From a virus, in the IMG/VR virus record IMGVR_UViG_3300049601_000013, positions 1 through 64,000 of that record: a stretch of DNA of 64,000 nucleotides; one strand, written 5' to 3'. The translations under genes were made by a program, and so were the position numbers. This document shows, one piece after another, positions 1,440-50,455 of the stretch (the stretch's first letter is position 1; every line of letters begins with the position of its first letter). The notes beneath the pieces were generated by a model. That model worked only from the letters and a program-made list of their open reading frames with translations. It was not told the DNA's origin and ran no database searches.

Positions 1440-2405
1440 ATGTTGATCCTTTGCGACGGAACAGACGGCGCGGGCAAGTCGACGCTCGCCACGCGGCTCA
1501 CGGAGTACCTGGAACGTCACCGCCCCGGCGACACGGTCGAGCTGTGGCACGCGGGCAAGCCGACGACGCACCCCCTCGACGAGTACGTCACGCCCCTGCT
1601 CGGGTACCGGCCCGGACGTGGACACCACATCATCTGCGACCGCTGGCACTGGGGCGAGACCGTCTACCCGGTCATCAAGGGGCGACCCACGGACCTCGAC
1701 CGGCCGACGCACCGGTACACGGAGCTGTTCCTCCAGACGCGCGGCGCGTTGGGCGTGCACGTCTGGCGCGACGTGCACGAGCTGCAGGCGGTCTTCCGCG
1801 ACCGTGGCGAGTTCATCTTGACCGACGCCGAGCTCCACGAGACGCAGAAGCTCTTCACGGTCGCGTACAACGACTCCACGATCACGAAGCGCACGATTCG
1901 TCCCGATGAGGCGGACGTCGTGGAGTACATCGTCGCGGAGGCGGCGCGCGCCGAGCTTAAGGCACGATCCGTCGCGAGCCTCGTGACGTACGTCGGGCCC
2001 CCGCAGGCGGACACGTTGCTCTTGGGCGACGTTCGCTGCCCGGGCAATCACAACCCCGCGGGACCGGCGTTCACGCCGTATCCCGCCACATCGGGCGCGT
2101 TCCTGATGCGCGCTCTCCACGAGTCGGGCATGGCCGAGACCCTCACCGGTGGCCTGGGAATCGCGAACGCGTGCGACGTGGACTCCGTCGCCGACCTCGT
2201 CGCCAGCGTGCGGCCGTACGCGGTCGTCACGCTCGGGGCCAACGCGTGGAAGACGTACACCGGCGCGTTCGGCACGGAGGGTGTCGGCGCCGTTCCTCAC
2301 CCGCAGTACGTTCGCCGGTTCCATCACAAGCACTGCGCGGACTACGGCGCCGCCATCTCGGAGGCGTCATACTACCGAAGGGACATGCGCTCGTGGCGAC
2401 CCTGA
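1440..2405 (+). CDS. fusion protein: dTMP/dNMP-kinase-like P-loop domain plus uracil-DNA-glycosylase-superfamily (family 4-like) domain
   Basis: N-terminus ILCDGTDGAGKST and IICDRWHWGETVYP match thymidylate-kinase motifs. The C-terminal half has LLLGDVRCPG..GPAFTPYPATSGAFL and VPHPQYVRR, resembling UDG family 4 motifs A and B. Confidence 0.7.
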   Translation: MLILCDGTDGAGKSTLATRLTEYLERHRPGDTVELWHAGKPTTHPLDEYVTPLLGYRPGRGHHIICDRWHWGETVYPVIKGRPTDLDRPTHRYTELFLQTRGALGVHVWRDVHELQAVFRDRGEFILTDAELHETQKLFTVAYNDSTITKRTIRPDEADVVEYIVAEAARAELKARSVASLVTYVGPPQADTLLLGDVRCPGNHNPAGPAFTPYPATSGAFLMRALHESGMAETLTGGLGIANACDVDSVADLVASVRPYAVVTLGANAWKTYTGAFGTEGVGAVPHPQYVRRFHHKHCADYGAAISEASYYRRDMRSWRP

Positions 2406-3232
2406 TCACCGCACTCACCGGACCCGCGGCCTACCTGGAGCTGGTGCGGACCGTCGTCAAGAACGGCGTCAAGCGCTCTCCCCGCAACCAGGCGACGCGC
2501 GACCTCGGCATGACCGTCGTCGAGATCGAGCGGCCCCGACGCGCGACTCCCCTGGGCGTCGGCCGTGGACTCAACCGGCACATCATGGCCGCGGAGGCCG
2601 TCCAGCTCGTCGGCGCCTTCTCGGATGCCAACCTCATGCCCGCGACGTTCGAGCCGTACAAGGAGGCCGACGGCCGGTTCTGGGGGGCGTACGGTGACCG
2701 CATCGGCTTCCAGCTGATGGACGTCGTGCGCAAGATCCGGCAGGACCACGCGACGCGGCAGGCCGTCATCGCGCTGTGGAACCCGCACCTGGACAACGTG
2801 CCGTTCAAGAACGACTACCCCTGCACGCTCAACCTGACGTTCTCGACCGATGAGGACGGCTACCTCGACCTTGACGTCATCATGCGCAGCCAGGACGTCT
2901 GGCTCGGCACGCCCTACGACTGGTGCCAGTTCAGCGTGCTGCAGCAGACGGTGGCCACCCTGACCGACCGTGAGTGCGGGCTGTACCGTCACACGACGTT
3001 GTCCACGCACATCTACGAGCGCGACGTCGCCAAGGCGTTGGAGAAGCTCCATGACGAACCCGAGGAGGTCGAGGGTGACTCGTTCCCCGCAGGACTGGCG
3101 CGCCCCGGTGATACCCCTATGGAGACCATCCAGCGGGTCCGGCAGATCCCGTACGTCGACCGCGCGTACATGGTCCACGAGCACTGGTTCCGTGACGCCA
3201 TCCTCAAGGGACGAGGCAACCTGCATGCGTGA
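2393..3232 (+). CDS. thymidylate-synthase-family pyrimidine C5 transferase, predicted dCMP-specific (hydroxymethylase or methylase)
   Basis: TRQAVIALWN, YPCTLNLTF (catalytic Cys 2822-2824) and MRSQDVWLGTPYD align to ThyA RRIIVSAWN, PCH and RSCDVFLGLPFN. Asp (2918-2920) replaces Asn177. GTG 2393 overlaps the upstream stop. Confidence 0.8.
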   Translation: MATLITALTGPAAYLELVRTVVKNGVKRSPRNQATRDLGMTVVEIERPRRATPLGVGRGLNRHIMAAEAVQLVGAFSDANLMPATFEPYKEADGRFWGAYGDRIGFQLMDVVRKIRQDHATRQAVIALWNPHLDNVPFKNDYPCTLNLTFSTDEDGYLDLDVIMRSQDVWLGTPYDWCQFSVLQQTVATLTDRECGLYRHTTLSTHIYERDVAKALEKLHDEPEEVEGDSFPAGLARPGDTPMETIQRVRQIPYVDRAYMVHEHWFRDAILKGRGNLHA

Positions 3233-3695
3233 GCGTCCGTCGTGGGATGAGGTCTGGCTCGCGGTCGCGCAAGATGTCGCCGAGCGCTCCCTGTGCGAGC
3301 GCGACCGCGTCGGGGCCGTCATCGTGGACCACCGCAACCGTCCCGTTGCCGCGGGACACAACAACCCGCCGCGCAACTTCGATCACGGAAACCTCGGCTG
3401 CACCGCGTGGTGTACCCGGGCGGTCGACGGCGGCGGCGATGCGGAGTACTCGACGTGCCCCAGCCTGCACGCGGAGGCGAACGCGCTGATCGTAGGCGAT
3501 GAGTCGGCGCGGCAGGGCGGCACGATCTACGTCACCAGTCACATCTGCTTCACGTGCGCCAAGCTGGTGGCCAACTCGGGACTGGCGCGCGTCGTCGTGG
3601 CGCCGCACTTTCCCGCGCTGCACCGGGCACCTCAGACGGGCTACGTGCTGCTCAACCGATGCGGAGTGGAAGTGGAGATCAAGAATGTGCTGTGA
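3225..3695 (+). CDS. dCMP deaminase (cytidine/deoxycytidylate deaminase fold)
   Basis: Zinc motifs SLHAEANAL and CFTCAKL (HAE...PCxxC type). ATG 3225 overlaps the upstream stop. Confidence 0.85.
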   Translation: MRERPSWDEVWLAVAQDVAERSLCERDRVGAVIVDHRNRPVAAGHNNPPRNFDHGNLGCTAWCTRAVDGGGDAEYSTCPSLHAEANALIVGDESARQGGTIYVTSHICFTCAKLVANSGLARVVVAPHFPALHRAPQTGYVLLNRCGVEVEIKNVL

Positions 3696-3900
3696 CGGCT
3701 GCTGCACCCGACCGGAGCCGGTCGACGAGCGCGAGCTGCGAGCGGTGGTGGAGCGCGCCGTGTCCGACTTCGACTTCCACGTCTATGATGCGGACGTCGT
3801 GGCCACCGTCAACTCGATGGACGCCCGGCTCCAGACGTGGCGTCGCGCGCTGGTCGCCGACGTCACCGACGCGGTCACAAGTGTGGTGAGCACCGCGTGA
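3685..3900 (+). CDS. hypothetical small protein
   Basis: Internal ATG of the 3499..3900 ORF (MCCDGCCTRPEP...). It overlaps neighbouring genes at both ends and its codon bias looks coding. Confidence 0.45.
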   Translation: MCCDGCCTRPEPVDERELRAVVERAVSDFDFHVYDADVVATVNSMDARLQTWRRALVADVTDAVTSVVSTA

Positions 3901-5714
3901 GTCTTGATGACGTGCAGGTCCACCTGGTGGACTCCACCGAGGACGTCGCCGACTTCATGCGGTGGCTTGGTGAGCGGCGACCCGACAATGAGATCGGCTG
4001 CGACACGGAGTCCACGGGACTCGATAAGCAGAAGGACCTCGTGCGAACGGTCCAGTTCGGCGACGCCGTCCACGGCTGGACGATTCCGATCGAAGACTGG
4101 CGCGGCGTCGTCAAGGAGGTGTTCACCAAGTTCACCGGCACGTATGTGGGGGCAAACTGGCCGTTCGATGACGCCATGCTTCGCAACGCGGGCATTGAGC
4201 CGCCGGCACGCGACAAGATTCACGACACGCGCATGATGCACCACCCGCTCGAGTCGACATACTCCACGGCGCTCAAGAACCTCGCGGCGCGCTACGTCGA
4301 CCCGCGCGCCGCGGCGGCGCAGAAGGACCTGGATGACGCCATCAAGATCTACGGGTGGGACGGCATTCCCGTCACCTTCCGGCCCTACTGGGTGTACGCC
4401 GCGCTGGACCCGGTGCTCACCAAGCGGGTGAAGGACGTCATCTACCCGCGGGTGCAGGCCGAGTGTCCGAGGGCGTACGACCTGGAGCTGGCGACGTCGT
4501 GGGTCACCAGCGACGTCGAGCGGTACGGCATTCACATCGACGCCGAGTACGCGGAGCAGGCCTTCGGCAAGTTCGAGCGGTACGTCGCCGACTCCGGTAA
4601 GTGGGTGCAGGACAACTACGGCATTTCCGCCGGCTCCAACCCGGGCGTCGTCAAGGTGCTCAATGAGCTCGGGTACGAGTGGAGTAAGACGACGGCGTCC
4701 GGTGCGGCGGCGCTGGACAAGGAGATCCTCGCCGGCATCGAGCACCCGCTCGCCCAGACGGTGCTGTCGCGTCGCCAGCGGCAGAAGCTCGCTAAGACGT
4801 ACCTCCGGCACTTCATTGACGAGCGTGACGCGTCCGACCTCATTCACTGCTCGATCAACTCGGTCGGCGCGCGGACCGGCCGCATGTCCGTCCAGCGTCC
4901 CGCGCTCCAGACGCTGCCGCGGCGCAGTGAAAAGAACTCCGACGCCATCGTCATTCGCAACTGCATCTCGGCGCGGCCGGGACACACGCTCCTGATGTGC
5001 GACTTCGACCAGATCGAGATGCGGATCCTCGCGTACCTGAGCAAGGACCCTGCCATGCTGGCGGCATTCCTCGCGGAGGGTGACTTCTTCACCAGCATGG
5101 CGTGTCAGCTCTTCCAGCTGGAGAGCATGCTGAAGTCCGACCCACGCCGACAGATCACGAAGAACGGGGGATACGCCAAGATCTACGGCGCGGGCATCGA
5201 CAAGTTCGCCCTCACCGCCGGAGTGTCACCCGCGGACGCCAAGAAGTTCATGACGGACTTCGACGCCATGTTCGCCGAGGTGCCGCGCTTCCAGCGTGAC
5301 GTCATCAACACGGCGATGGGTCGTCGGCAGCAAGAGGGCGTGGCGTACGTCCGCTCGCCACTCACGGGTCGTAAGCACGTCGCGGACCGCAACAAAGAGT
5401 ACGCGCTGACGAACTACCTCATCCAGGGACTAGCCGCCGAGCTGTTCAAGATGAAGGTCCTCGAGGTCGACGCGTCGGGGCTCGGCCAGTGGCTCACCAT
5501 GCTGGTGCACGATGAGGTCGTGCTCGACGTTCCGAATGAGCACGTGGTCGACGCGGTGCACACGCTGGAGCTGATCATGAACGACACCGCCATTCTCGAT
5601 CCCGTTCCCGTGTCCGCCTCCGTCTCCTTTGGTCTACGATGGGGGAGTAAGCAAGACTGGAACGCCGACTGGTGGAGGGAGACCCTTCGTGAGCACGAGC
5701 GCGCGACGGTTTGA
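3897..5714 (+). CDS. polA: DNA polymerase I (family A) with 3'-5' exonuclease domain
   Basis: Exo I motif GCDTESTGLD, motif B RRQITKNGGYAKIYGAG and motif C LVHDEVVLDV. GTG 3897 overlaps the upstream TGA. Confidence 0.9.
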   Translation: MSLDDVQVHLVDSTEDVADFMRWLGERRPDNEIGCDTESTGLDKQKDLVRTVQFGDAVHGWTIPIEDWRGVVKEVFTKFTGTYVGANWPFDDAMLRNAGIEPPARDKIHDTRMMHHPLESTYSTALKNLAARYVDPRAAAAQKDLDDAIKIYGWDGIPVTFRPYWVYAALDPVLTKRVKDVIYPRVQAECPRAYDLELATSWVTSDVERYGIHIDAEYAEQAFGKFERYVADSGKWVQDNYGISAGSNPGVVKVLNELGYEWSKTTASGAAALDKEILAGIEHPLAQTVLSRRQRQKLAKTYLRHFIDERDASDLIHCSINSVGARTGRMSVQRPALQTLPRRSEKNSDAIVIRNCISARPGHTLLMCDFDQIEMRILAYLSKDPAMLAAFLAEGDFFTSMACQLFQLESMLKSDPRRQITKNGGYAKIYGAGIDKFALTAGVSPADAKKFMTDFDAMFAEVPRFQRDVINTAMGRRQQEGVAYVRSPLTGRKHVADRNKEYALTNYLIQGLAAELFKMKVLEVDASGLGQWLTMLVHDEVVLDVPNEHVVDAVHTLELIMNDTAILDPVPVSASVSFGLRWGSKQDWNADWWRETLREHERATV

Positions 5715-6162
5715 GGACGTTCACATCATCGGCGCCGACCCGGGTAAGATGACCGGCCTCGCGCGTCTTCACCACGGTCACCTCACGGTGGTGGCCGCGA
5801 CCTTCGACGAGGTCGAGCCGGTGGTCCGCATGTGGCTCGCAGACGAGGAGCCGGCGGTCGTCGCGGTCGAGCGCTTCGTCATCACGCGCAACACGGCGAA
5901 GAAGACGCAGCAGCTCGACGCGCTGAAGTTGTCCGGCGTCTTGGAGAACCTCGTCGTGCAGGGTGAGCGTCACATCATCGCGTACCAGAACATGTCGGAC
6001 GCGAAGAAGATCGGGCACCCGACGCTTCTCAGGTCACTTCACTGGAAGTCCGTCGGCAAGCACGCGACCCACAAGAACGATGCAGCTGCGCAGGTGATCA
6101 TGATGCTGGCGAGCCGCTACCCGGTTGCCTTCAACCAGCTGGTCACACCTGATATAGTCTGA
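5689..6162 (+). CDS. RuvC-like Holliday junction resolvase
   Basis: VHIIGADPGKMTG, AVERFVI and KNDAAAQVIMM match the RuvC acidic catalytic positions. GTG 5689 overlaps the end of the polymerase gene. Confidence 0.7.
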   Translation: MSTSARRFEDVHIIGADPGKMTGLARLHHGHLTVVAATFDEVEPVVRMWLADEEPAVVAVERFVITRNTAKKTQQLDALKLSGVLENLVVQGERHIIAYQNMSDAKKIGHPTLLRSLHWKSVGKHATHKNDAAAQVIMMLASRYPVAFNQLVTPDIV

Positions 6163-6192
6163 CTCGACAACGACAAGCGACGAGGAGATCAC

Positions 6193-8067
6193 GTGGCCAC
6201 CGCAAAGCTTTCGCCCGACGGGCAGCTGATCGCCGTCTTCACCGAGTTCCGTGACAAGGAACTGATCAAGTCCGTTCCGGGCTCACGCTGGAACGCGACG
6301 CTCGAGCCGAAGCACTGGACCGTCCCGCTGTCGTGGGGCTCGTGCGTCGCGCTGCGCGGCATCTTCGGCGACAAGCTCCACATCGACGAGTCGCTTCACA
6401 ACTGGGCGTGGCTCACGCGTAAGACGCGCGTCGACCCGGCGCTCGCGCTGCGCGAGCTGATCGAGCTTCCCGAGCCTGATGAGGGCGACAAACGGCTCTA
6501 CTCTTTCCAGCGGGTGGGCGTGAAGTGGCTGACGACCGCCGGCTCCGCGCTGCTCGGGGACGACATGGGCAGCGGAAAAGGTGTGCAGCTTCCCTCCGCG
6601 CTGCAGGAGCTCGTCAACGCGGGAACCGAGGCCTTGCCCGCCGTCGTCATCTGTCCCAACTCCACCAAGCGCACGTGGAAGCGCGAGCTGGAGAAGTGGT
6701 GCCCGTCCGCCACGCCGTACATCTTGCACGGCTCCATGGCGCAGCGGCGTAAGACGATCACGCAGGCCGCCGACGACCCGAGCGCCGTCTTCATCGTGAA
6801 CATCGAGTCGGTGCGGCAGTTCACGCGGCTCGCGCCGTACCCGTCGGTCTCTCTGAAGAAGTGCCGCGAGTGCAACCCGCAGGGCGGCGAGGAACTTGTC
6901 ACCGCGACGCAGTGTGAGGTGCACCTGCGCGAGCTGAACGCGATCCAGCTGCGCACGGTGATCTTCGACGAGGTTCACCGCGCCAAGGACCCGCGGTCCA
7001 AGCAGACGCGGGCGTGGTGGGCGCTCGCGCACCAGGCCGGCGTCATCACCAACTGGGTCGCCAGCGGCACGCCCATCGCCCGCGACCCCGGCGACCTGTG
7101 GTCCGTTCTGCACGGCATCGCGCCCGAGGACTTTCCCACCAAGTCGAAGTTCGTCGACCGCTACGCGCTGATGTCGTGGAACGCGTTCGGCGGCATGGAG
7201 ATCGTTGGACTCAACCCGGCGACGCGCGACGAGTTCTTCCGGATCCTGGACACGCGGTTCCGCCGCATGCCGAAGGACCTGATCTTGCGGCACCTGCCGC
7301 CTAAGATCCGCACGCAGCGGTACGTCCAGCTGACGACCAAGCAGCGCAAGGCCTACAAGGAAATGGCCGCGCGCATGCTGACCCGACTGGATGACGGCAC
7401 GCTGTTCGTCGCCAAGAACAACCTCGTCGCGCACGGCCGGCTGCTCCAGCTGTCGTCGTCGTACGCCGAGATCATCAAGCCTGATGAGAACGACCCGGAC
7501 ACGTGGCAGGTCACGCTTAAGGAGCCGTCGCCGAAGGTCGACGAGCTCATCGAGATCTTGACCGACCTCGGCCCAGACAAGCAGGTCGCCGTCTGTGCGG
7601 CGTCCCGCCAGCTGGTCGAGCTGACCGCCAAGCGGCTGGACAAGGAGAAGATCTCCTACGGCATGATCACCGGCAAGGTGTCGGAGGCCGAGCGGGATCA
7701 CCAGCTGCAGAAGTTCCAGGCGGGCAAGTCGCGGGTGATGCTCTTCACGATCGCCGCGGGTGGCACCGGACTCACCATGACCGCCGCCAGCACGATCATC
7801 TTCATGCAGCGGTCGTGGTCGATGATCGAGAACAAGCAGGCGGAGGACCGCGTGCACCGCATCGGCTCGGAGATCCACGAGTCGGTGAACATCATCGACA
7901 TCATCGCGGAAGACACCATCGAAGAGACGCACCAGCTGCCCAAGCTGTTCGAGAAGCTCGAGCGCCTGGAAGAGATCGTGCGTGACCGTGAGACGCTCAA
8001 GAAGGCGGGCCTGTCCACCGCGGACCTCGACGACGAGGAATCTGCCATCATGTCGTCCGGCATCTGA
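6193..8067 (+). CDS. SNF2/Rad54-family helicase
   Basis: LGDDMGSGKG (motif I), FDEVHRAK (motif II, DEVH) and QAEDRVHRIGS (motif VI). Confidence 0.85.
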   Translation: MATAKLSPDGQLIAVFTEFRDKELIKSVPGSRWNATLEPKHWTVPLSWGSCVALRGIFGDKLHIDESLHNWAWLTRKTRVDPALALRELIELPEPDEGDKRLYSFQRVGVKWLTTAGSALLGDDMGSGKGVQLPSALQELVNAGTEALPAVVICPNSTKRTWKRELEKWCPSATPYILHGSMAQRRKTITQAADDPSAVFIVNIESVRQFTRLAPYPSVSLKKCRECNPQGGEELVTATQCEVHLRELNAIQLRTVIFDEVHRAKDPRSKQTRAWWALAHQAGVITNWVASGTPIARDPGDLWSVLHGIAPEDFPTKSKFVDRYALMSWNAFGGMEIVGLNPATRDEFFRILDTRFRRMPKDLILRHLPPKIRTQRYVQLTTKQRKAYKEMAARMLTRLDDGTLFVAKNNLVAHGRLLQLSSSYAEIIKPDENDPDTWQVTLKEPSPKVDELIEILTDLGPDKQVAVCAASRQLVELTAKRLDKEKISYGMITGKVSEAERDHQLQKFQAGKSRVMLFTIAAGGTGLTMTAASTIIFMQRSWSMIENKQAEDRVHRIGSEIHESVNIIDIIAEDTIEETHQLPKLFEKLERLEEIVRDRETLKKAGLSTADLDDEESAIMSSGI

Positions 8068-8075
8068 GGAGCAAC

Positions 8076-9065
8076 GTGCACAACGGAATCATTGACGGCG
8101 TGCGGCGCATCTCGAACTCGGAGATCCAGGCGTTCAAGAAGTGCCGCCGCCAGTGGTGGCTCGCGTGGTACCGCGGACTGCGGTTCAGCTACGAGGCACC
8201 CGTTGAGAAGAAGCACAACGGCGACCGCGTGCACAGGGCGCTCGCCCCCTGGTACGTCCCGGACGGCGTCCAGCGGGTAGACCCGCGGGAGACGCTCGAA
8301 GGTGTCATCCAGGAGGACCGAGACGTACTGCTGGGCCGGCTGACGGCGTCGGGTGCGTCGGTCGACGAGTCGCCCGAGTGGACCAAGCTGGTCAAGCTCA
8401 ACGACCTCGAGCGGATCATGGTCAACGGCTACATGGAGTGGCTGGAAGAGACGGGCGCCGATGAGCACCTGGAGATCGTCGCGGCGGAGACGTACCTCGA
8501 GGTGCCCATCCCAGGCTTTGGTCTCGATGTGCGCGCCGTGGGTAAGATCGACGTTCGCGCTCACCTGACGTCCAACGGACACCGTGTGTTCATCGACCAC
8601 AAGACCGCCGACGTCATGCCCAAGCTCGACGACCTCGAGCGCAACGAGCAGATGCAGTACTATGAGCTGCTCGAGTACCTGACGCCCGGCGAGGAGGCGT
8701 GCCACGGCGCGCTCTACAACGTCCTGCGCCGCGTGAAGCGCACCGCCCGCGCTAAGCCGCCGTTCTACGAGCGTCATCTCATTACGCACAACGTGCACCG
8801 GCGGGCGACGTTCTACCGCCGCACGATCGCCACGATCCGGGACATGCTCGCCGTCGAGGCCGCGCTCGACGCGGGTGCGGACCATCACGACGTCGCGTAC
8901 CTCCAGGCGACGCGAGACTGCGACTGGCAGTGCTCCTTCGCGGCGATCTGCACCATGTTCGATGACGGGTCACGCGTCGAGCAGATGCTCGAGCACCACT
9001 ACGTCGCCGGGGACCCGCTGCACTACTACGGCGACATCATTGAAAAGACGAGGACGGGATCATAG
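8076..9065 (+). CDS. Cas4/RecB-family PD-(D/E)XK exonuclease
   Basis: GKIDVRA...FIDHKT and QMQYYELL (QxxxY). One N-terminal Cys plus C-terminal CDWQCSFAAIC gives the Cas4-type four-Cys pattern. Confidence 0.75.
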   Translation: MHNGIIDGVRRISNSEIQAFKKCRRQWWLAWYRGLRFSYEAPVEKKHNGDRVHRALAPWYVPDGVQRVDPRETLEGVIQEDRDVLLGRLTASGASVDESPEWTKLVKLNDLERIMVNGYMEWLEETGADEHLEIVAAETYLEVPIPGFGLDVRAVGKIDVRAHLTSNGHRVFIDHKTADVMPKLDDLERNEQMQYYELLEYLTPGEEACHGALYNVLRRVKRTARAKPPFYERHLITHNVHRRATFYRRTIATIRDMLAVEAALDAGADHHDVAYLQATRDCDWQCSFAAICTMFDDGSRVEQMLEHHYVAGDPLHYYGDIIEKTRTGS

Positions 9066-9511
9066 TGGGGACCAATCACCTGCAGCGCGCGTTCCAGCGC
9101 GCGCTCATCATCGCGCAAGTCATGGAAGACACGCGCGTCCTGGGCCCGATCATTCGCACCAACTGGAAGGGCATCGCCCAGGTCAAGACGCTGTGCGTGG
9201 CGTGTGGCGACGACCTCGACGTCGGCCAGACGTACGAGAAGGCACACTACATGGAGCGTCCCAAGTGGGAACGCTTCGTGCACGAGCTGTGTCCGACGAC
9301 GCAAGAGATGATCGACATCTTGCGCAAGGGACAGCACGAGGACCTCGTCATGCACAGCTTCGCGGGGCAGGGCGGCGGCACGTGTGAGCGCTGTCAGCGT
9401 CGCTTCGACAAGTACCAGACGGTCTACGAGGTCCGCCCCTTCGGCGAGCTGCCGAAGACCGGTAAGATCTACCAACGCTGCTGTAAGGAGTGCGTGAGTG
9501 TCTTCAACTGA
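9065..9511 (+). CDS. hypothetical Cys-rich (zinc-binding) protein
   Basis: CVACGDD...ELCP...CERCQ...CCKEC. The GTG start overlaps the upstream TAG. Confidence 0.5.
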   Translation: MGTNHLQRAFQRALIIAQVMEDTRVLGPIIRTNWKGIAQVKTLCVACGDDLDVGQTYEKAHYMERPKWERFVHELCPTTQEMIDILRKGQHEDLVMHSFAGQGGGTCERCQRRFDKYQTVYEVRPFGELPKTGKIYQRCCKECVSVFN

Positions 9512-10337
9512 CGAGCAGGACACGAGTGCTGCGACGTCACCGATCGGTGAGGATGCGACGCTGTCGATTCTCATTCACGCGCCAAGCAAGGTCGGTAAGT
9601 CCACGCTGTCGTCCACCGCTCCCGCGCCCATCCTGGTGCTGGATGCGGAGGGCGGCTGGCGGTTCATTCGGGAGTCCGGCTTCCAGTCGGGAGTCCCGCT
9701 GCGGAAGAGGTTCTGGGACCCCCTCGCGGAGCCGCCTCCGCGTCACGACGGAACGTGGGACGCGTGCATCGTCACGGTCAGCAGCTGGGGCACGCTCAAG
9801 CGCGTGTATGAGTGGCTGCTGACGACGCCTCACGACTTCCGGTCGCTCGTGCTGGACTCCATCACCGAGGCGCAGCGCCGGTGCAAGGAGAACATCAAGA
9901 GTGACGGCCAGATGCAGATCCAGGACTGGGGCCGTCTTCTCGCGGAGATGGACAAGCTGGTGCGCGGCCTGCGTGACCTTATCTTGCTGCCCAATAACGT
10001 CCGCATCGCGGTGTTCCTCGCGGAGACGAAGGAGCACCTTGGCCGATGGCGTCCCGCCATGCAGGGCCAGATCGGGACCGCGCTCCCGTACTGGATGGAC
10101 GTGGTAGGGTACCTGTTCGTGGCCAACGACCTGGATGAAAACGGTCAGCCGACCGTCCCGGTGCGTCGCCTGCTCGTGGGTCCCAACCCCACGTATGAGT
10201 CGGGCGAGCGCGTGCAGGGCGTCCTGGGCGCGGTGGTCCACGAGCCTCACATCACCACCATCGTCAACACCGTCTTTCCTCACACATCCTCGAACACCTC
10301 CGCTGAACGCGACACGAAGAAGGGCACTGACCAGTGA
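9498..10337 (+). CDS. RecA-like AAA ATPase (Sak4/AAA_24-like)
   Basis: Walker A LIHAPSKVGKST and Walker B-like LVLDSITE. It sits between the nuclease and the SSB-like gene, as in phage recombination modules. Confidence 0.7.
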   Translation: MSSTDEQDTSAATSPIGEDATLSILIHAPSKVGKSTLSSTAPAPILVLDAEGGWRFIRESGFQSGVPLRKRFWDPLAEPPPRHDGTWDACIVTVSSWGTLKRVYEWLLTTPHDFRSLVLDSITEAQRRCKENIKSDGQMQIQDWGRLLAEMDKLVRGLRDLILLPNNVRIAVFLAETKEHLGRWRPAMQGQIGTALPYWMDVVGYLFVANDLDENGQPTVPVRRLLVGPNPTYESGERVQGVLGAVVHEPHITTIVNTVFPHTSSNTSAERDTKKGTDQ

Positions 10338-10876
10338 CATCATTCAACTTCGGCGACCTGTACAAGGACGCCACCACGCTCGTGACCGGCACCTTCGACG
10401 GCATCGTCTCCGAGTCGACTCTCACGGAGTCGTCCAACGGCAAGCCGATGATCAAGGTGAAGCTGCAGGTCGAGGGCGGCAAGCACCACGGCAAGACCTT
10501 CTTCACGCAGTTCGTGATCTCCGTCGACAGCCCCACCGCCCTGCGGATGTTCTTCGGCAACATGAAGGCGTTCGGCCTCGGCAAGGAGTACTTCGAGACC
10601 AACCCGGCGTCGGAGCAGGTGGCCGCCGCCATCCACGGCAAGCGCTGCCGCTTCACCGTCGGCACGCGTGAGTGGCAGGGCGTCGACCGCGAGAGCGTCG
10701 ACAAGGTCGAGCCGCCGCTGCCCGGCATGAACGGCCTGCCGGGGCTGCCGGGAGCGTCGACGCCCGCCGCGCCGGTTCCGGGGGTTCCGTCCACGCCGGT
10801 CGTCTCGGGCCCGCCGGCGGGCGCCCAGGGACCCGCCGCCAACGGCGCCGACGTTCCGCCGCCGCCCGCGTTCTAG
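10334..10876 (+). CDS. ssDNA-binding protein-like (DUF669-type) with Pro-rich tail
   Basis: FGDLYKDA..GTFDGIV..KVKLQVEGGKHHGKTFFTQF pattern. The C-terminal disordered tail ends GADVPPPPAF. Confidence 0.55.
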   Translation: MTSFNFGDLYKDATTLVTGTFDGIVSESTLTESSNGKPMIKVKLQVEGGKHHGKTFFTQFVISVDSPTALRMFFGNMKAFGLGKEYFETNPASEQVAAAIHGKRCRFTVGTREWQGVDRESVDKVEPPLPGMNGLPGLPGASTPAAPVPGVPSTPVVSGPPAGAQGPAANGADVPPPPAF

Positions 10877-10889
10877 TCGCCGCGTCGAC

Positions 10890-10918
10890 TTGAACAACCG
10901 CCGACGGTCTGGTACGTT
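10890..10918 (+). promoter_or_regulatory. sigma70-like promoter upstream of the glycosyltransferase operon
   Basis: TTGAAC (10890-10895), 17 nt spacer, TACGTT (10913-10918), with TGG just upstream of the -10. It lies in the 93-nt gap before ATG 10970. Confidence 0.45.
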
Positions 10919-10939
10919 CGCGCGTATCAGACCGTCGGC
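10900..10939 (+). promoter_or_regulatory. 12-bp perfect inverted repeat enclosing the predicted -10 box
   Basis: GCCGACGGTCTG (10900-10911) and CAGACCGTCGGC (10928-10939) are separated by a 16-nt loop containing TACGTT. It could be an operator or the terminator of the upstream operon. Confidence 0.5.
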
Positions 10940-10969
10940 CACCACGGCACGACAGAGACAAGGACGCGC

Positions 10970-12304
10970 ATGAAAATCTTGTATGGAAAGCTCGGTCGTG
11001 CCATGCCGTTGACCTTGGAAAAGTGCGGCACGCTGGGCGGCGACGTGGAGTGCATTCCCGTCGTCAAGGCGCTCGCCCAGCGGCATCCCGAGGACACCTT
11101 CTACCTCTTTGGCCGCAACTCCGGCGAGGTCGCCGAGGAGGCGGGGCTGCCGACGAACGTCGTCAACCCGTGGACCGAGTACGGCTGGCGCGACGAGCTT
11201 CGCGCGTTCATCAAGCGACACGAGATGAACGGCAACTTCACGGTCGCGCAGCAGCGGCAGCTGATCGCATTCATGGACGACATGGTGCGTCCGCTCGTGG
11301 ACGACACGGACGGCATCGTCGGCTGGATCGGACAGCACGGCACCACGAACCAGCCGACGCCCGGCATCACCAAGAAGTCCAGCGGGCAGCTTACGCGGCC
11401 GCAAGACTTCTCGGTGATCTACTGCAGCTTCTTCCTGAACGCGATCAACCGCTTCCGCGACGTCGACCCGTGGACGCGTGAGGAGGTCTGGCTCAACGCG
11501 GACTCGCGCAACTACCTCAAGATGCGCGACCTCGCGTGGCCGCTGGTCGAGCCGGTCCTCACCCAGCGGACGTACCAGCACACGATCCGACACGAGCGCG
11601 GCGACCGGCGCATCGCCGTGAATCACGACTGGCAGCAGCGCGTAGGCGCCCGCGAGCTGGACAAGCACGGGCATCACGTGTGGGAGTCCACCGTGAACTG
11701 CGTCTACTCGCGCCTGGAGATCAACGCACTGATGCCCGACACGCCCTTCGGCGACCTGGTGTCGTACAGCGACGACTTCGACCGGCCGGGCCGGTTCGGC
11801 CTCTTCATCAACGAGGCGCGGACGTACGTCTCCGACGCCACCAAGCGCGTCAACGCGCTGCGCGACTACGCGCTTCCGGTTCGTCCTCACTTCGTGCACG
11901 GCACGTGGTCAAAGCCGTCACAAGAAAGCTTGGGCATCACGATCACTCCCGCACCGTGGAGCGAGTACTACGCCAAGTTGCACAGCGTGAAGTGCACGCT
12001 GACGACGCCGTCCAGTGGGTCCGGCTTCGCGACCACCAAGCCGTGGGAGGCGTTCGCGGCGGGAACCGTCTGCTTCTTCCACCCCCGCTACGATGACCAG
12101 AATCACATTCTAGGCGGCCTTCCGGAGGTTGCCCAGCAGTGGCTACGGGTTAAGCATCCGGGAGACTTCCAGCGCAAGCTGCACGAGGTCTCGAACGACC
12201 GGGGGCTGTGGGAGTGGCTGGTCCGCGAGCAGCGCGAGTACTTCGAGCGCGAGATCGCCGACCTCCGTTACATCCAGCACATCGAGGAGAGGCTCTACGC
12301 ATGA
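10970..12304 (+). CDS. GT-B-fold glycosyltransferase, possibly a DNA (hydroxymethyl-base) glycosyltransferase
   Basis: N-terminal MKILYGKLG...GGDVECIPVVKAL...DTFYLFGRN and C-terminal TKPWEAFAAGTVCFFHPRYD loosely resemble T4 beta-glucosyltransferase (MKIAIINMG..SSETIYLF; RVWETMASDAVMLIDEEFD). It lies within the replication/modification operon. Confidence 0.5.
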   Translation: MKILYGKLGRAMPLTLEKCGTLGGDVECIPVVKALAQRHPEDTFYLFGRNSGEVAEEAGLPTNVVNPWTEYGWRDELRAFIKRHEMNGNFTVAQQRQLIAFMDDMVRPLVDDTDGIVGWIGQHGTTNQPTPGITKKSSGQLTRPQDFSVIYCSFFLNAINRFRDVDPWTREEVWLNADSRNYLKMRDLAWPLVEPVLTQRTYQHTIRHERGDRRIAVNHDWQQRVGARELDKHGHHVWESTVNCVYSRLEINALMPDTPFGDLVSYSDDFDRPGRFGLFINEARTYVSDATKRVNALRDYALPVRPHFVHGTWSKPSQESLGITITPAPWSEYYAKLHSVKCTLTTPSSGSGFATTKPWEAFAAGTVCFFHPRYDDQNHILGGLPEVAQQWLRVKHPGDFQRKLHEVSNDRGLWEWLVREQREYFEREIADLRYIQHIEERLYA

Positions 12305-13419
12305 CGTCGACGCGCGCCGCCATCATCAGCACGACGATCAACCCGATGCCCAACATGGAGTCGTGGCTCACGCACATGTCGCCGCGTGACGTCATGATCA
12401 TCGCGGGTGACCATAAGACCCCTCACGCCGAGATCGAGCGCATGGCGCGACGCGCGCGTGAGGAGTATGACCTCGACGTCACGTACGTTCGACCCGAGGT
12501 GCAGGGCCGCTGGCTGTCATCGGAGGTCCTCCCGTGGAACTGCATCCAGCGGCGTAACATCGCGATCCTCGAGGCGATCGACCGGACTCCCGAGTTCATC
12601 ATCACCATCGATGACGACAACTACCCAATGACCGACGTCACGCACATCGGCATGTCGTGGGTCGACCAGGTCGAGTGGGTTCTCATGCGACCGCACGACG
12701 TCGTCGTGGGCAGCTCCAACACCGGCTGGTTCAACCCCGGCGAGCTGTGCCGTCCCCGGGTGACGCACCGGGGATTCCCGTTCGGTCGTCGTCACGAGGA
12801 GACCGAGCTCGGGCTCAGCTTCAACGCGGGCAACCCCACGGTCGGCGTCTTCGCCGGACTGTGGTACGGCGACCCGGACATCGACGCGATCGAGCGCGTC
12901 GTCTCACAGCCGGACATCAAGATGATCGAGCAGGTCAACGTCACGCTCGCGCCGGGCACGTGGGCGCCCTTCAACTCGCAGTCCACCGCGTACCGCACCG
13001 AGCTGGCGCCGCTTATGATGTGCCTGCCTCACGTGGGTCGGATGGACGACATCTGGGCCAGCTACGTCGCGCGCACTGTCATGGATCACATCGGCTGGCT
13101 CGTCCAGTACGGTTCACCCACCGTCCGCCAGGACCGCAACCCGCACGACCTCTTCCGCGACATCCAGGCGGAGATGCTCGGGTACGAGCACACGCAACAC
13201 CTCTGCGACGTTCTTCGCGGCATTGAACTGCCCGCGACTTCGCACGTGGACGAGCTACTGACGTACGTGACCTCACACCTCACAGCACTTCCGTACGTTC
13301 CGGTTGGAACCCTGAATGCGTATGACGCGTGGAGCGACGACATCATACAGCTCGACGATCGTCACGCCGCCGCACGACTGTTCGACACCTCGAAGATGGG
13401 AAACGACAATGATGAGTGA
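12301..13419 (+). CDS. RGP/GT75-family (reversibly glycosylated polypeptide / UDP-arabinose mutase-like) glycosyltransferase
   Basis: FIITIDDDNYP, THRGFPFGRR, GLWYGDPDIDA and GRMDDIWASY align with plant RGP motifs FTIDDDCFV, RGYPFSLR, GLWLNIPDYDA and GRYDDMWAG. The ATG overlaps the upstream TGA. Confidence 0.7.
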   Translation: MTSTRAAIISTTINPMPNMESWLTHMSPRDVMIIAGDHKTPHAEIERMARRAREEYDLDVTYVRPEVQGRWLSSEVLPWNCIQRRNIAILEAIDRTPEFIITIDDDNYPMTDVTHIGMSWVDQVEWVLMRPHDVVVGSSNTGWFNPGELCRPRVTHRGFPFGRRHEETELGLSFNAGNPTVGVFAGLWYGDPDIDAIERVVSQPDIKMIEQVNVTLAPGTWAPFNSQSTAYRTELAPLMMCLPHVGRMDDIWASYVARTVMDHIGWLVQYGSPTVRQDRNPHDLFRDIQAEMLGYEHTQHLCDVLRGIELPATSHVDELLTYVTSHLTALPYVPVGTLNAYDAWSDDIIQLDDRHAAARLFDTSKMGNDNDE

Positions 13420-13945
13420 TTCGACCGACAACCTCGTCCGCCTGCTGGAGATGCAAGAGCGGCTCCAGCGGGAGGCGTATAAGACCGACCTGCGGGCGCT
13501 GCAGCCCGAGGAGCGCGTCGACTTCATCAAGGACATGGTGCTCGCCGCCACCGATGAGCTGCACGAGGCGCTCGCGGAGACCAGCTGGAAGCCGTGGGCG
13601 TCGACGTACGGCGACGTCCAGAGTGAGGCGTTCTTCAACGAGCTGGTGGACCTGCTACACTTCGTCATGAATCTCATGCTCGTCGCTCGCCAGGACCTGG
13701 AGCCGCGCGAGGTCGCCCAGCTGCTCGTCCAGCGGTACGAGGTCAAGAACGCGAAGAACCTCCAGCGGCAGGTCGAGGGCTACGACGGGAAGACCAACAA
13801 GTGCCCCGCGTGTAAGCGTGCCCTCGATGACGAGGCGGTCCGCTGCCGGCGCGTCACCGTCGACGACTTCGACGGGCCTCACCGGTTCTGGTGTTCACGT
13901 GATGCGGAGTTCTTTCACGCGGACGGCTCTCGCGCGCACTCCTAG
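13409..13945 (+). CDS. all-alpha NTP pyrophosphatase (dimeric dUTPase/dCTPase, MazG-like) with C-terminal zinc ribbon
   Basis: TDELHEALAETSWKPW and ELVDLLHFVMNL are typical of the dUTPase_2/MazG all-alpha family. The C-terminus reads CPACK...CRR..WC. Confidence 0.65.
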   Translation: MMSDSTDNLVRLLEMQERLQREAYKTDLRALQPEERVDFIKDMVLAATDELHEALAETSWKPWASTYGDVQSEAFFNELVDLLHFVMNLMLVARQDLEPREVAQLLVQRYEVKNAKNLQRQVEGYDGKTNKCPACKRALDDEAVRCRRVTVDDFDGPHRFWCSRDAEFFHADGSRAHS

Positions 13946-13946
13946 T

Positions 13947-13974
13947 ATGATCAGCTGAATGTGTCAGTGATCAT
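13947..13974 (+). promoter_or_regulatory. imperfect inverted repeat upstream of the C5-methyltransferase gene
   Basis: ATGATCAGCTGA, 5 nt spacer, TCAGTGATCAT, with two TGATCA hexamers. It lies 20 nt upstream of GTG 13995. Confidence 0.35.
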
Positions 13975-13994
13975 GGTAGCGTCGGGAGAGTCAT

Positions 13995-15665
13995 GTGACG
14001 TACAGGGCCGTGGACTGCCAGTCCTTCGCGGGCGGCTTCACGCTGGGAATGGTGCAGGCGGGTTTCGAGCTTACGGGAAAGCGTGAGCAGAAGGGTGGCT
14101 TTGGCACACCCAACTGTGAGGCCAACCGTCACCTGCTCGGCGACGGGTGGCAGGCGGAGGCGTGTTCACCTGAAGAGTGGACTGTACCGACAGCAACTAG
14201 TGATGTACTATTTGCTAATCCCCCGTGTTCGGGATTTTCGGTGATGAGCTCACGTGACTTTCGCGGAGCGGGTTCAGTCATCAACTCGTGCATGTGGGCC
14301 ACGATCGAGTACGCCGCTCGCGTTCGTCCAATTGTAGCCGTCTTCGAGTCGGTCCAGCTGGCCGCGAAAGAGGGTGAGGGACGCGAGCTGATGCGCGCGC
14401 TGCGCGACCGGCTCGAGGAGCTCACCGGCGACAAGTACCACCTGTACCACGTGTTGCACAACGCGTACTCCGTCGGCGGCGCGGGCATGCGGCGCCGGTA
14501 CTTCTGGCTCGCGTCCCGCGTGCCGTTCGGAATCGAGGAGCCGCTCATCCAGCGGTACCCGGTTCTCAACGAGGTCATCGGCGACCTGGTCGAGCAGCCG
14601 CTCGCGTGGGAGGCACGGCCGTACGCGAACCCCGCGCCGTCGTGGTGGGCGGCCACGCGTCGGAACGTCGGCTCGAACGGCGTTCCGGCGCACACGGTGG
14701 ACGGGCACGCGATGACCGAGTCGCCGCTTCACCTGCGCATCAAGGAGCTCATCGAGTGGGCAGACATGCGACCGCGCGAGCCCATACAGCACGCGCTTCG
14801 CCGCTGCTATGAGACGCACGGGTCGCTGCCGCCCTTGTGGAAGCACAACGAGGCGAAGCTGATCTCGCGCGACTTCTTCTCCGGCTTCACGGCGCCCGTC
14901 CGCTGGCAGGGCGACCTGCCGGCGCGCGTCATCACCGGCGGCGCGCTGGGCTCCGTGATTCACCCGACCCTCGACCGCACGATCACGCACCGTGAGACCG
15001 CCCGCGTCATGGGCTTTCCCGATGACTGGCTGATCGACCCGATCCCGCGCGGGGGTCTGGCACCCACGTGGGGCAAGGGCATCACCGTCGATTGCGGCCG
15101 GTGGATCGGCGAGTGGATCAGGGCCGCACTGGACGGCGCGCCCGGCACGTTCGCGGGCGACCTCGTCGGCGAGCGTGAGAGCTCGATCGACTGCACCAAC
15201 TCGTGGCAATCACAGGGCAAGATTGTGATCAAGTCTGGTAAGGTAGTACGGACTGCTGCGAAACGCAAAAACACACAGGGAGGAATCAGCATGTCCGAGG
15301 ACGTCAACGTGGAGAACGCGTCCCAGGCGGAGGCCACCGTCCCCGCCACCAACCGACGTGGCCGGCCACGTCCCGAGGTCACCATCGAACGCGATGCCGT
15401 CGTTCTGAAGGTGCTGGAGGCCGCGCCGTCCACCAAGGTGCAGGTCGCCGTGGAGACCGGCTTCAAGGAGAACGAGGTCTACCTCTCTCTGCACCGGCTG
15501 CAGAAGACCGGCAAGATCAAGCGTGTGCGCGACGGCGGGTCTCACATGTGGGAGGTGACCTCCTCGGAGGACGCTCCCGAGGTCGCCACCGCCGAACCCA
15601 CCGAGGCGACGCCGGCACCCGCGATCGAGCCGCAGGGTCCCGCGCAGCCGGAGTCGTGGATCTAA
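13995..15665 (+). CDS. DNA (cytosine-5) methyltransferase fused to a C-terminal winged-helix domain
   Basis: Motif I CQSFAGGFTLG, motif IV FANPPCSGFS, motif VI FESV and motif VIII GMRRRYFW. The C-terminal LEAAPSTKVQVAVETGFKENEVYLSLHRLQKTGKIKRV looks like a wHTH. Confidence 0.8.
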   Translation: MTYRAVDCQSFAGGFTLGMVQAGFELTGKREQKGGFGTPNCEANRHLLGDGWQAEACSPEEWTVPTATSDVLFANPPCSGFSVMSSRDFRGAGSVINSCMWATIEYAARVRPIVAVFESVQLAAKEGEGRELMRALRDRLEELTGDKYHLYHVLHNAYSVGGAGMRRRYFWLASRVPFGIEEPLIQRYPVLNEVIGDLVEQPLAWEARPYANPAPSWWAATRRNVGSNGVPAHTVDGHAMTESPLHLRIKELIEWADMRPREPIQHALRRCYETHGSLPPLWKHNEAKLISRDFFSGFTAPVRWQGDLPARVITGGALGSVIHPTLDRTITHRETARVMGFPDDWLIDPIPRGGLAPTWGKGITVDCGRWIGEWIRAALDGAPGTFAGDLVGERESSIDCTNSWQSQGKIVIKSGKVVRTAAKRKNTQGGISMSEDVNVENASQAEATVPATNRRGRPRPEVTIERDAVVLKVLEAAPSTKVQVAVETGFKENEVYLSLHRLQKTGKIKRVRDGGSHMWEVTSSEDAPEVATAEPTEATPAPAIEPQGPAQPESWI

Positions 15666-18059: not shown

Positions 18060-18971
18060 ATGACCGACACGATGGTAACCACACGGTCCGTCCCGTGGAT
18101 GCAGCTGGGCAGCATCCTCGATGAGGAAGTCATGACGGCGGAGCGTGCGATCGACCTCGGTGGAATGGACTTCACCGTCTCCATGCAGCCGTGCTTCCAG
18201 CGGCTGAGCACCGGCACCTTCGCGGAGATCACAAACCGTAAGGCGGTCACGCGAGACGACACGGAGGAGGTCTTTGAGGTCGTCTCTGACGGCTACGAGA
18301 TCCTGCAGTTCGGCGAGGCGTTCGACTTCCTCGACGCGATCAACCCGCGGTTCGTCGCGGCGGGAACGCTCAAGGGTGGCAAGCAGGGCTTCGTCGTCGT
18401 GCAGGCGCCTGAGATGGAGTCGCTCAACCTGCTGGGTGATGACAAGCATGACATGTACGTCGTCGTGCGAACGTCGCACGACCGCTCCCGGGCGGTGGAG
18501 GCGATGATCATGCCTCTCCGTGAGAGGTGCATGAACCAGCTCGGGCTCCAGTCCTTCAAGGCGGGCGTCGCGAACCGCTGGTCCATCCCTCACACGAAGT
18601 CCATGCACGACAAGCTGATCGTCGCGCAGGACGCGATCACAAAGATCGACGTGTACGCGGATGAGCTCAAGAAGACGGCGGAGCGGCTCGCGGCGGCGAC
18701 CTTCTCCCGGGAGACCGGCGAGAAGCTGATCCGGCGGGTGCTGCCTCAGCGGCCGAAGACCGATGAGGTCGTGGCACGGATCCTGGACCTCTGGCAGCAC
18801 GGCGAGACGGTCGGCTACGCGGGCAACGGGTGGGGACTCGTCAACGCGGTGTCGGACTACTTCGACCACGGTCGCGCGGGCGGCTCGGCGGAGTCCCGGT
18901 TCACCGGGGCGCTGCAGGGTGTGACCTACAAAATGATCAACTCAACGGCGGCACTCGCGCTCGCGGCGTGA
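18060..18971 (+). CDS. DUF932/DUF945-family phage-plasmid protein
   Basis: DGYEILQFGEAFDFLD...GTLKGGKQGFVVVQ pattern typical of the family. It has its own promoter and terminator. Confidence 0.65.
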   Translation: MTDTMVTTRSVPWMQLGSILDEEVMTAERAIDLGGMDFTVSMQPCFQRLSTGTFAEITNRKAVTRDDTEEVFEVVSDGYEILQFGEAFDFLDAINPRFVAAGTLKGGKQGFVVVQAPEMESLNLLGDDKHDMYVVVRTSHDRSRAVEAMIMPLRERCMNQLGLQSFKAGVANRWSIPHTKSMHDKLIVAQDAITKIDVYADELKKTAERLAAATFSRETGEKLIRRVLPQRPKTDEVVARILDLWQHGETVGYAGNGWGLVNAVSDYFDHGRAGGSAESRFTGALQGVTYKMINSTAALALAA

Positions 18972-19025: not shown

Positions 19026-19406
19026 GTGGGATCACCACGAGTTCGCATGGTGGAACCGTACGAAGAGGTACGCGCGCAGCGCGAAGATGCGTGGATGGAG
19101 AAGGCCGCGTGCGCGGACGATGATCCCTACCTCTATGATGAGCGGTACGATAGGCGACCTCCGTCCAACGTACGCTGCTTCAGCGGCTGCGTCGTACGCG
19201 CGCAGTGCTTCACATTCGCGGTACGTCACGGCTTCGAGGGCGTCTGGGGCGGCACAACGCACAAGCAGCGTAAGCTGCTGCAGCGGCGCCAGAGTCGCGT
19301 ACGCTGCCCCGGGTCCGAGTGTGGCGGCACTCACATCCAGCGCGACGGCGGGCGTGCCACGTGCGCAAGCTGTGGGCTCAGCTGGCCTACGACGCAGTCC
19401 GCCTAG
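19026..19406 (+). CDS. whiB: WhiB-family transcription factor with C-terminal zinc-ribbon extension
   Basis: Cys cluster AACADD...RCFSGCVVRAQC, then the GVWGG turn and a basic KQRKLLQRRQ. Extra CPGSECGG...CASCG follows. The start is uncertain (GTG 19026 after GGGAGGG, or ATG 19047). Confidence 0.75.
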   Translation: MGSPRVRMVEPYEEVRAQREDAWMEKAACADDDPYLYDERYDRRPPSNVRCFSGCVVRAQCFTFAVRHGFEGVWGGTTHKQRKLLQRRQSRVRCPGSECGGTHIQRDGGRATCASCGLSWPTTQSA

Positions 19407-23112: not shown

Positions 23113-23146
23113 CTCTACCTCCCAGTGAGAGATCTCCACGGTCGCG

Positions 23147-50451: not shown

Positions 50452-50455
50452 CCTA

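Follow-up and report, generated by a model that had tools for sequence, protein, structure and literature searches.

The viral DNA analysed here, termed the window, is a stretch of 64,000 nucleotides that covers positions 1 to 64,000 of the IMG/VR virus record IMGVR_UViG_3300049601_000013 and has a GC content of 65%. It belongs to a metagenomic viral contig of about 92 kb (JGI 3300049272 Ga0497538_000001; Logan SRR35522775) and comprises a plus-strand replication arm (about 1-19 kb) followed by a minus-strand structural arm. Between positions 1440 and 15665 the plus-strand arm carries genes for nucleotide-pool enzymes, a glycosyltransferase (GT), a sugar-nucleotide enzyme and a cytosine methyltransferase. 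Comparisons of their sequences and structural models make it fairly probable that the arm encodes a two-stage pathway of the T4 type, in which cytosine is converted to 5-hydroxymethylcytosine (5hmC) and then to furanosyl-5hmC in DNA.

An earlier note on this DNA had assigned such a toolkit to six open reading frames (ORFs). All six lie where it had placed them, and independent metagenome gene calls on the parent contig agree with them (321, 279, 156, 444, 372 and 178 amino acids (aa)). Stop-to-start overlaps join them in two sets, namely kinase/ThyA-like/deaminase and GT/GT75/nucleoside triphosphate pyrophosphatase (NTPase).

Enzymes of the nucleotide pool

The gene at positions 2393..3232 (plus strand) codes for a ThyA-family protein (PF00303, E 1e-22) with a gp42-type signature, which is predicted to be a pyrimidine hydroxymethylase acting as a 5-hydroxymethyl-dCMP (5hm-dCMP) synthase. 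It scores far below all of the NCBIfam thymidylate synthase cutoffs (best 60 bits vs cutoffs of 108-576), and its nearest phage relatives are pyrimidine hydroxymethylases, including the dUMP hydroxymethylases of SPO1 (gp29) and SP-10. The active site was compared with those of E. coli ThyA, whose numbering is used, T4 gp42 and SPO1 gp29; the E. coli ThyA sequence, like that of Ung mentioned below, served as a reference only. According to the residue rules of Lee et al. (NAR 2026, PMC13326640), N177D specifies dCMP as the substrate, L143D/E yields a hydroxymethyl rather than a methyl product by admitting water, and D169N characterises 5-hydroxy-dCMP synthases. The window protein is identical to T4 gp42 at all six positions inspected (D143, C146, T147, M165, D169 and D177), which relative to E. 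coli comprise the changes L143D, H147T, Q165M and N177D, with C146 and D169 kept. It is shared unchanged by 35/35 relatives and by four more distant homologs, one of which comes from a Pseudoalteromonas phage, while SPO1 gp29 differs in having N147, N165 and N177, and E. coli ThyA also has Asn177. Judged by these rules, the six gp42-identical residues predict 5hm-dCMP as the product rather than 5-hydroxy-dCMP, dTMP, hydroxymethyl-dUMP or 5-methyl-dCMP. The dCMP-type active site that the earlier note had read from this gene is borne out by the Asp at the position of E. coli N177.

Three other assignments of this protein were rejected. A canonical thymidylate synthase is contradicted by D177 and D143 in place of Asn177 and Leu143, together with the scores below the NCBIfam cutoffs. 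A 5-hydroxy-dCMP synthase of the RB69 gp48 type is contradicted by D169, kept in all 35 relatives and in Pseudoalteromonas phage XG4, and a dUMP hydroxymethylase by residues 177, 147 and 165, which are those of gp42 and not of SPO1 gp29.

The preceding gene (1440..2405, plus strand), whose stop overlaps the start of the ThyA-like gene by 13 nt, codes for a two-domain protein with an N-terminal part of about 178 aa (nt 1440-~1975) and a C-terminal domain of about 140 aa (1974-2405). The N-terminal half is a P-loop protein with the thymidylate-kinase fold (AlphaFold2 pLDDT 93.1; phrog_761 'thymidylate kinase') and Foldseek pairs it over ~200 columns with TMP kinases of human, Aquifex and vaccinia origin (E 5e-7), in agreement with the dNMP-kinase-like domain proposed earlier for 1440-~1990. 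It is predicted to be a 5hm-dCMP kinase in the role of T4 gp1. The fusion of the two domains is kept in 311 homologs. The C-terminal domain is of the alpha/beta type and strongly conserved; its motifs GD.R, PAF, N.CDVD and HPQ..RRFH do not vary. Of the kinase-UDG (uracil-DNA glycosylase) fusion suggested by the earlier note, the kinase half stands by its fold and the UDG label is unsupported. The Pfam UDG model gives 23.2 bits, under the cutoff of 24.3, and of 39 family members only 4 are matched by it; a profile search of the PDB was negative, as was an hhalign comparison with E. coli Ung (prob 0.7%). The similarity to the UDG superfamily is thus borderline, the predicted alpha/beta topology and the GD.R, PAF and HPQ motifs being compatible with a UDG but not diagnostic.

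The third gene of this set (3225..3695, plus strand) overlaps the stop of the ThyA-like gene and encodes a dCMP deaminase analogous to T4 cd (PF00383, E 4e-15; phrog_174, E 1e-34), as had been proposed, with both zinc motifs, HAE and CFTC (CxxC), intact.

An all-alpha NTPase of the dimeric dUTPase family is encoded further downstream (13409..13945, plus strand; PF08761 dUTPase_2, 43.8 bits vs cutoff 22.9; phrog_18650 dUTPase, E 2e-35). This 178-aa protein aligns end to end with T4 gp56 in BLASTP (25% identity over ~155 aa, E 1e-8), and gp56 also matches PF08761. The protein is a homolog of this dCTPase/dUTPase, whose role the earlier note had suggested for it, and is predicted to clear dCTP (and dUTP) from the pool.

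A ThyA homolog with D177, D143 and D169 is also found, with a kinase and a dCMP deaminase, in the cultured Gordonia phages GodonK (L002:7019-10072), GMA2, Phendrix and Sixama. These homologs carry the plain label 'thymidylate synthase', and no homolog of the 444-aa GT described below is located nearby. By their gene content these phages are candidates for unglycosylated 5hmC DNA.

A predicted DNA glycosyltransferase and its putative sugar-donor enzyme

The gene at positions 10970..12304 (plus strand) codes for a 444-aa protein without any match in Pfam, PHROG or NCBIfam, and 632 unnamed metagenomic homologs of it were found, many of them on contigs of ~60 kb. Its AlphaFold model (pLDDT 86.9, pTM 0.87) has a GT-B fold closest to that of the T4 beta-glucosyltransferase (BGT), which occupies ranks 1-4, 6 and 8 in a Foldseek search of ~350k PDB chains (top 1j39, 1qkj and 1c3j; E 2e-7, prob 1.0, TMt 0.58-0.64). 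Further PDB fold matches are MshA, BshA and the DNA GT of phage HY126 (9ir0). In BFVD, the model matches a 'DNA beta-glucosyltransferase' (E 9e-17, TM 0.68) and the GTs of Rhizobium phage RL2RES, Bacillus phage SP-15 and cyanophage S-TIM5, the last being a DNA alpha-GT. The hhalign comparison with BGT yielded a 55-column C-terminal match only (prob 39%, E 3e-4), in which the family-invariant KPWE aligns with LRVWE of BGT, placing K357/E360 opposite R269/E272. A tblastn search of phages retrieved only Pseudoalteromonas phage XG4 (24% identity). The GT-B enzyme resembling BGT that the earlier note had described is thus recovered at the level of fold, and the protein is predicted from its modelled fold and its context to be a DNA (5hmC) glycosyltransferase of a new sequence family.

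The stop codon of the GT gene overlaps the start of the next one (ATGA), located at 12301..13419 (plus strand) and encoding a protein of the GT75 family (PF03214 RGP, 32.2 bits vs cutoff 23.8). In phmmer it matches MtdL (7yua/7xpr; E 6e-33), a GT75 Mn2+-dependent NDP-pyranose-to-furanose mutase studied by crystallography and enzymology (PMC9937993). With the residue list and the numbering of MtdL taken from that work, and 40 phage sequences compared, the window protein keeps R90, D109-D111 (DXD), N112, R159, D195, S228, Q229, R257, D260, R289 and H292, and this pattern is nearly invariant among the phage proteins. The DXD motif, the catalytic and autoglycosylated Arg159, D195, S228/Q229, the beta-phosphate-binding Arg257, D260 and Arg289/His292 are each present in at least 39 of the 40. 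The sugar contact Asp87 of MtdL is replaced by Ile, Thr or Val in the phage GT75 proteins and the guanine selectors Asn42 and Ser86 are not conserved, so the nucleotide (UDP or GDP) and sugar specificity is probably unlike that of MtdL. By its sequence, the protein is most likely a mutase of the Mn type that supplies the donor by converting an NDP-pyranose, other than the one used by MtdL, to the NDP-furanose, and not a second transferase.

The earlier note had assigned this second sugar enzyme to the RGP/GT75-like proteins, which agrees with PF03214 and MtdL, and had taken it for a second transferase contributing to a possible two-sugar decoration. According to that model, 5hmC would be made in the same way and GT75 itself would be a DNA glycosyltransferase adding a second or different sugar. 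The proteins of this family are indeed formally glycosyltransferases, with a GT-A fold, a DXD motif and Arg autoglycosylation (PMC9937993), and poly-glycosylated cytosines occur in RB69, DLP3 and RL38J1 (PMC13326640). However, all characterised GT75 proteins are mutases or their inactive partners, none being known to use an external acceptor (PMC9937993), and the mutase residue set is invariant in the phage proteins. Its frequent neighbour, an SDR epimerase, is typical of donor pathways, and relatives of the window replace it by donor-supply enzymes (nucleotidyltransferase, kinase or UDP-galactopyranose mutase (UGM)) and not by transferases. A second transferase is therefore quite unlikely, and since GT75 is the likely donor-supplying mutase, a single furanose sugar is favoured over two.

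These replacements become apparent in a comparison of related genomes. Members of the GT family occur at 71 loci of IMG/VR, in which the module is syntenic, so the gene set does not represent a chance assembly. Counted over informative loci, that is, those whose flanks allow scoring, the ThyA-like gene occurs together with the deaminase in 30/30. The corresponding counts are 10/10 for the kinase, 46/50 for the homolog of gp56 and 31/50 for GT75. Where present, GT75 always directly adjoins the GT. The slot beside the GT is occupied either by GT75 alone, as in the window, or by GT75 and an NAD-dependent short-chain dehydrogenase/reductase (SDR) sugar epimerase/dehydratase (17 loci). In 10 loci without GT75 it contains a sugar-phosphate nucleotidyltransferase, accompanied by a kinase-like protein in seven loci or by a SIS domain in L072. 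Examples of the variants are L015:12327-13289, L032:11332-12893 and L072:11202-13399. The freshwater actinophage DSL-LC01 has the same module layout with a FAD-type UGM and an unrelated GT, which is not homologous to that of the window. The exchange of donor cassettes suggests that different DNA sugars occur within one phage family.

In three divergent contigs (L069, L077 and L078) and in Pseudoalteromonas phage XG4, with its GC content of 29%, the synteny of the replication arm is lost, yet the GT keeps as its neighbours a ThyA homolog of the gp42 type and a nucleotidyltransferase (in L078, a MazG-type NTPase). This pattern of linkage is the one to be expected if the module serves to hypermodify DNA and its donor pathway can be exchanged; it is hard to explain by glycosylation of the virion or the envelope.

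It bears on the possibility that the sugar genes are not directed to DNA at all. The GT-B enzyme and GT75 would then act on virion proteins or host envelope glycans, as auxiliary metabolic genes (AMGs), and the ThyA-like protein, kinase and NTPase would produce at most unglycosylated 5hmC. Furanoses occur in actinobacterial envelopes, and GT-B folds are generic, MshA and BshA also scoring against the 444-aa protein. Existing papers, including the soil-virome and DSL-LC01 literature, interpret the GT75 and UGM genes of phages as AMGs for the envelope or for carbon cycling. This reading is nonetheless unlikely: both sugar genes lie within an operon for replication and nucleotide metabolism, translationally coupled to the gp56 homolog; the best fold matches of the GT are DNA GTs; the GT co-localises with a gp42-type enzyme in four unrelated genome backbones; and a separate GT1/GT2/methyltransferase cassette at 19.4-23.1 kb can account for virion glycosylation.

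Phage vB_Psh_XG4 (PP712099; L080) is a cultured marine phage with an unannotated genome of 158 kb. Its module (L080:100-7552) consists, in order, of a ThyA-like gene bearing the gp42 signature, a nucleotidyltransferase-APH fusion, the GT homolog, a possible second GT, a C5-cytosine methyltransferase (C5-MTase) and a gp56-like NTPase, and thus offers an experimental handle on the module.

A putative pathway to furanosyl-5hmC DNA

Family membership, active-site signatures, folds and gene linkage are the observations from which we infer the chemical steps, the DNA acceptor, the identity of the sugar and the extent of replacement. The gp56-like NTPase would hydrolyse dCTP and dCDP to dCMP, which the gp42-type enzyme would convert with methylenetetrahydrofolate (CH2-THF) to 5hm-dCMP. 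Phosphorylation by the fused kinase and by a host NDP kinase would yield 5hm-dCTP for incorporation by the phage PolA, while the deaminase would direct part of the dCMP to dUMP and thereby to the supply of dTTP. GT75 would contract a host NDP-pyranose to the NDP-furanose, candidate sugars being of the galactose or arabinose types, and the BGT-like GT-B enzyme, acting on duplex DNA, would attach the furanose to 5hmC at its hydroxymethyl group. Such furanosyl-5hmC DNA would resist restriction and CRISPR nucleases. The gp42 signature, the gp56 homology, the BGT fold and the linkage of the GT give in silico support to the core of the earlier note, that dC is turned into a C5-modified dC before replication in the manner of T4 and the DNA then glycosylated with a sugar other than glucose.

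A fuller version, which falls somewhat short of an even chance, is that a large and wholly uncultured soil actinophage family (hundreds of contigs of ~60-100 kb) replaces cytosine by 5-(furanosyl-oxymethyl)cytosine, with the donor provided by a viral GT75 mutase and the sugar installed by the new BGT-like family. This would be the first viral role of a GT75 protein and the first related to nucleic acids. Swaps of the donor cassette (GT75, GT75 and epimerase, kinase and nucleotidyltransferase, or UGM) would place different sugars on the hmC scaffold, and a C5-MTase would add a mixed epigenome of 5-methylcytosine (5mC) and glycosyl-5hmC.

The C5-MTase (13995..15665, plus strand; PF00145, E 4e-18), a gene at the end of the interval on which the earlier note was silent, has a C-terminal extension resembling a winged helix-turn-helix and contains motifs I (FxGxG), IV (PPC), VI (ESV), VIII (R.R) and IX. 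None of 55 family sequences departs from its catalytic Cys, Glu and Arg, and it is present in 48 of 50 informative loci as well as in XG4 (L080:5363-6580) and L069 (6757-8010). The calls for this gene differ between two copies of the contig (556 aa vs 457 aa).

Several points weigh against the proposed pathway. The conservation and the intact catalytic residues of the C5-MTase argue against a complete replacement of cytosine; because fully C5-substituted cytosines would leave the enzyme without a substrate, replacement may be partial or the enzyme may have another target. Palindrome frequencies in the whole window are uninformative here, since the modest depletion of CATG (0.75x of expectation) and GGCC (0.82x) cannot separate full from partial modification; AGCT (1.5x) and CACGTG (1.8x) are enriched, and no site of the restriction type is near absent. 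The dCTP specificity of the gp56-like NTPase is not revealed by its sequence or alignment. In GT75, the Mn ligand His287 of MtdL is Gln in the window and in 37 of the 40 phage homologs and Ser in the other three, so that as a mutase it may work differently. By sequence, the GT belongs to none of the known families of DNA GTs, the TM-scores of its model to these enzymes are moderate (0.5-0.68), and an equivalent of the catalytic Asp100 of BGT was not identified in it, no residue-level structural superposition having been made. Finally, the deaminase is invariably placed beside the hydroxymethylase, which fits a route to hydroxymethyl-dUMP.

Such a route would shift the modification to thymidine, the deaminase turning 5hm-dCMP into 5hm-dUMP and the glycosylated base being 5-hydroxymethyluracil (hmU), as in base J, alone or beside 5hmC. 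The T4 dCMP deaminase accepts 5hm-dCMP, and dUMP hydroxymethylases (SPO1 gp29 and SP-10) are among the phage proteins nearest to the ThyA homolog. However, T4, which shares this deaminase, has DNA free of hmU, and residues D177, T147 and M165 point to cytosine as the base acted on. An enzyme that removes dTTP was not identified, the NTPase being closest to the gp56/dUTPase type. A thymidine-side modification is thus very unlikely. The presence of the C5-MTase with intact catalytic residues would also fit a phage whose DNA carries only 5mC, introduced by this enzyme or by the ThyA homolog acting as an XP12-like dCMP methylase. Indeed, N177D alone makes a thymidylate synthase a dCMP methylase, and the N229D mutant of the L. 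casei enzyme (1njc) is among the best PDB matches. Yet Asp at L143, a correlate of hydroxymethylases, is found in 35/35 relatives, the closest relatives of the protein are hydroxymethylases, and a methyl group is no acceptor for the co-conserved GT, so that methylation alone is highly improbable.

The proposed furanosyl-5hmC pathway shares with the glucosyl-hmC system of T4 a ThyA homolog of the gp42 type, identical in its active-site residues, along with a homolog of gp56, a dCMP deaminase, a dNMP kinase and a GT-B glycosyltransferase that best matches BGT. It differs in that the GT belongs to another sequence family (no Pfam match, 444 vs 351 aa, ~10% identity), the Tmk-like kinase carries an additional fused domain, and the module has a C5-MTase where T4 has Dam. 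The T4 donor comes from the host UDP-glucose pool, while here processing by a phage GT75 mutase is predicted. The window also encodes a PolA/SNF2/Sak4 replisome in a high-GC, siphovirus-like actinophage.

Furanoses on cytosine are known from a second group of phages, in which arabinofuranosyl-5-hydroxycytosine (D-Araf) occurs in RB69 and DLP3 and hexosyl-5-hydroxycytosine in Rhizobium phage RL38J1, where a UGM is predicted to feed galactofuranose (PMC13326640). These phages likewise have a ThyA homolog for C5-oxygenated dCMP, a dNMP kinase, phage genes for NDP-sugar supply, one or more DNA GTs and a furanose on cytosine, with a predicted phage NDP-sugar mutase in RL38J1. In contrast, the window protein keeps D169, which predicts a 5-hydroxymethyl rather than a 5-hydroxy product. 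The predicted mutase of the window is of the Mn-type GT75 and not an FAD-dependent UGM, genes for UDP-arabinose synthesis are missing from the window, and the hosts are Actinobacteria. The GT75 mutases MtdL and Hyg20 of actinomycete antibiotic pathways (PMC9937993) are homologous to the window protein, with conserved catalytic residues and a predicted supply of NDP-furanose to a partner GT; the window protein differs at His287 (Gln), Asn42, Ser86 and Asp87 and belongs to a context of viral DNA modification rather than secondary metabolism. Phage TET/JBP pathways, in which a C5-MTase forms 5mC that is oxidised to 5hmC by TET and then glycosylated, also combine a C5-MTase and a DNA GT in one locus. 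Unlike them, the window has a nucleotide-level gp42-type enzyme, and no 2-oxoglutarate/Fe(II) dioxygenase of the TET/JBP type was found among the ORFs scanned, a set that lacked the small ORFs and some of the minus arm.

In literature searches, neither this lineage nor furanosyl-5hmC was found to have been described before, and no paper was found that links GT75 to the modification of phage DNA. If the pathway operates as proposed, T4-type hmC replacement, so far known mainly from phages of Gram-negative hosts, would extend to a large uncultured lineage of high-GC actinophages, and phage DNA hypermodification would gain a new family of DNA glycosyltransferases and, with the GT75 mutase, a new type of enzyme for donor supply. 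The 'GT75/UGM carbon-cycling AMGs' of soil viromes would then be DNA-modification genes, which would correct a recurring annotation as envelope or carbon-cycling functions. One conserved GT beside an exchangeable sugar-nucleotide cassette provides a comparative system for the diversification of DNA sugars against restriction, CRISPR and glycosylase defences, and the new GT and mutase are possible reagents for 5hmC labelling chemistry.

Genomic setting and other genes

Replication and recombination genes (3837..10876, plus strand; Pfam/PHROG) separate the deaminase from the GT and are syntenic in the relatives. They code for PolA, a small ORF, an SNF2 helicase, a PD-(D/E)XK nuclease, orf148, a Sak4-like annealase and a DUF669 single-stranded DNA-binding protein. 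The plus arm closes with genes for a DUF932 protein (18060-18971) and a WhiB-family regulator (~19047-19406). The WhiB gene, together with the occurrence of PolA relatives in phages of Micrococcus, Microbacterium, Arthrobacter and Gordonia, points to an actinobacterial host. A megablast search with the whole region against 50,697 phage genomes produced no match, so there is no cultured close relative among them and no GenBank phage genome resembles the region in its DNA, and a scan of GTDB genomes for the 444-aa GT family gave no confirmed relative and thus no prophage or host link.

A second cluster of sugar genes (19459-23139, minus strand), at the distal end of the structural operon and of lower GC (0.59), comprises a GT1_4 protein (19459-20520), two GT2-family ORFs (20732-21313 and 21310-21978), a methyltransferase-like ORF (21854-22441) and a weak GT2 match (22426-23139). 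It is probably a virion-glycosylation cassette.

The minus-strand structural arm also encodes the major head protein (37175-38902) and the portal (48823-50529). Three large head-module proteins (41333-42400, 42822-46625 and 46622-48823, minus strand) have C-terminal domains resembling ADP-ribosyltransferase toxins (phrog_3895) beside regions resembling MuF/head-morphogenesis proteins, and may be ejected effectors.

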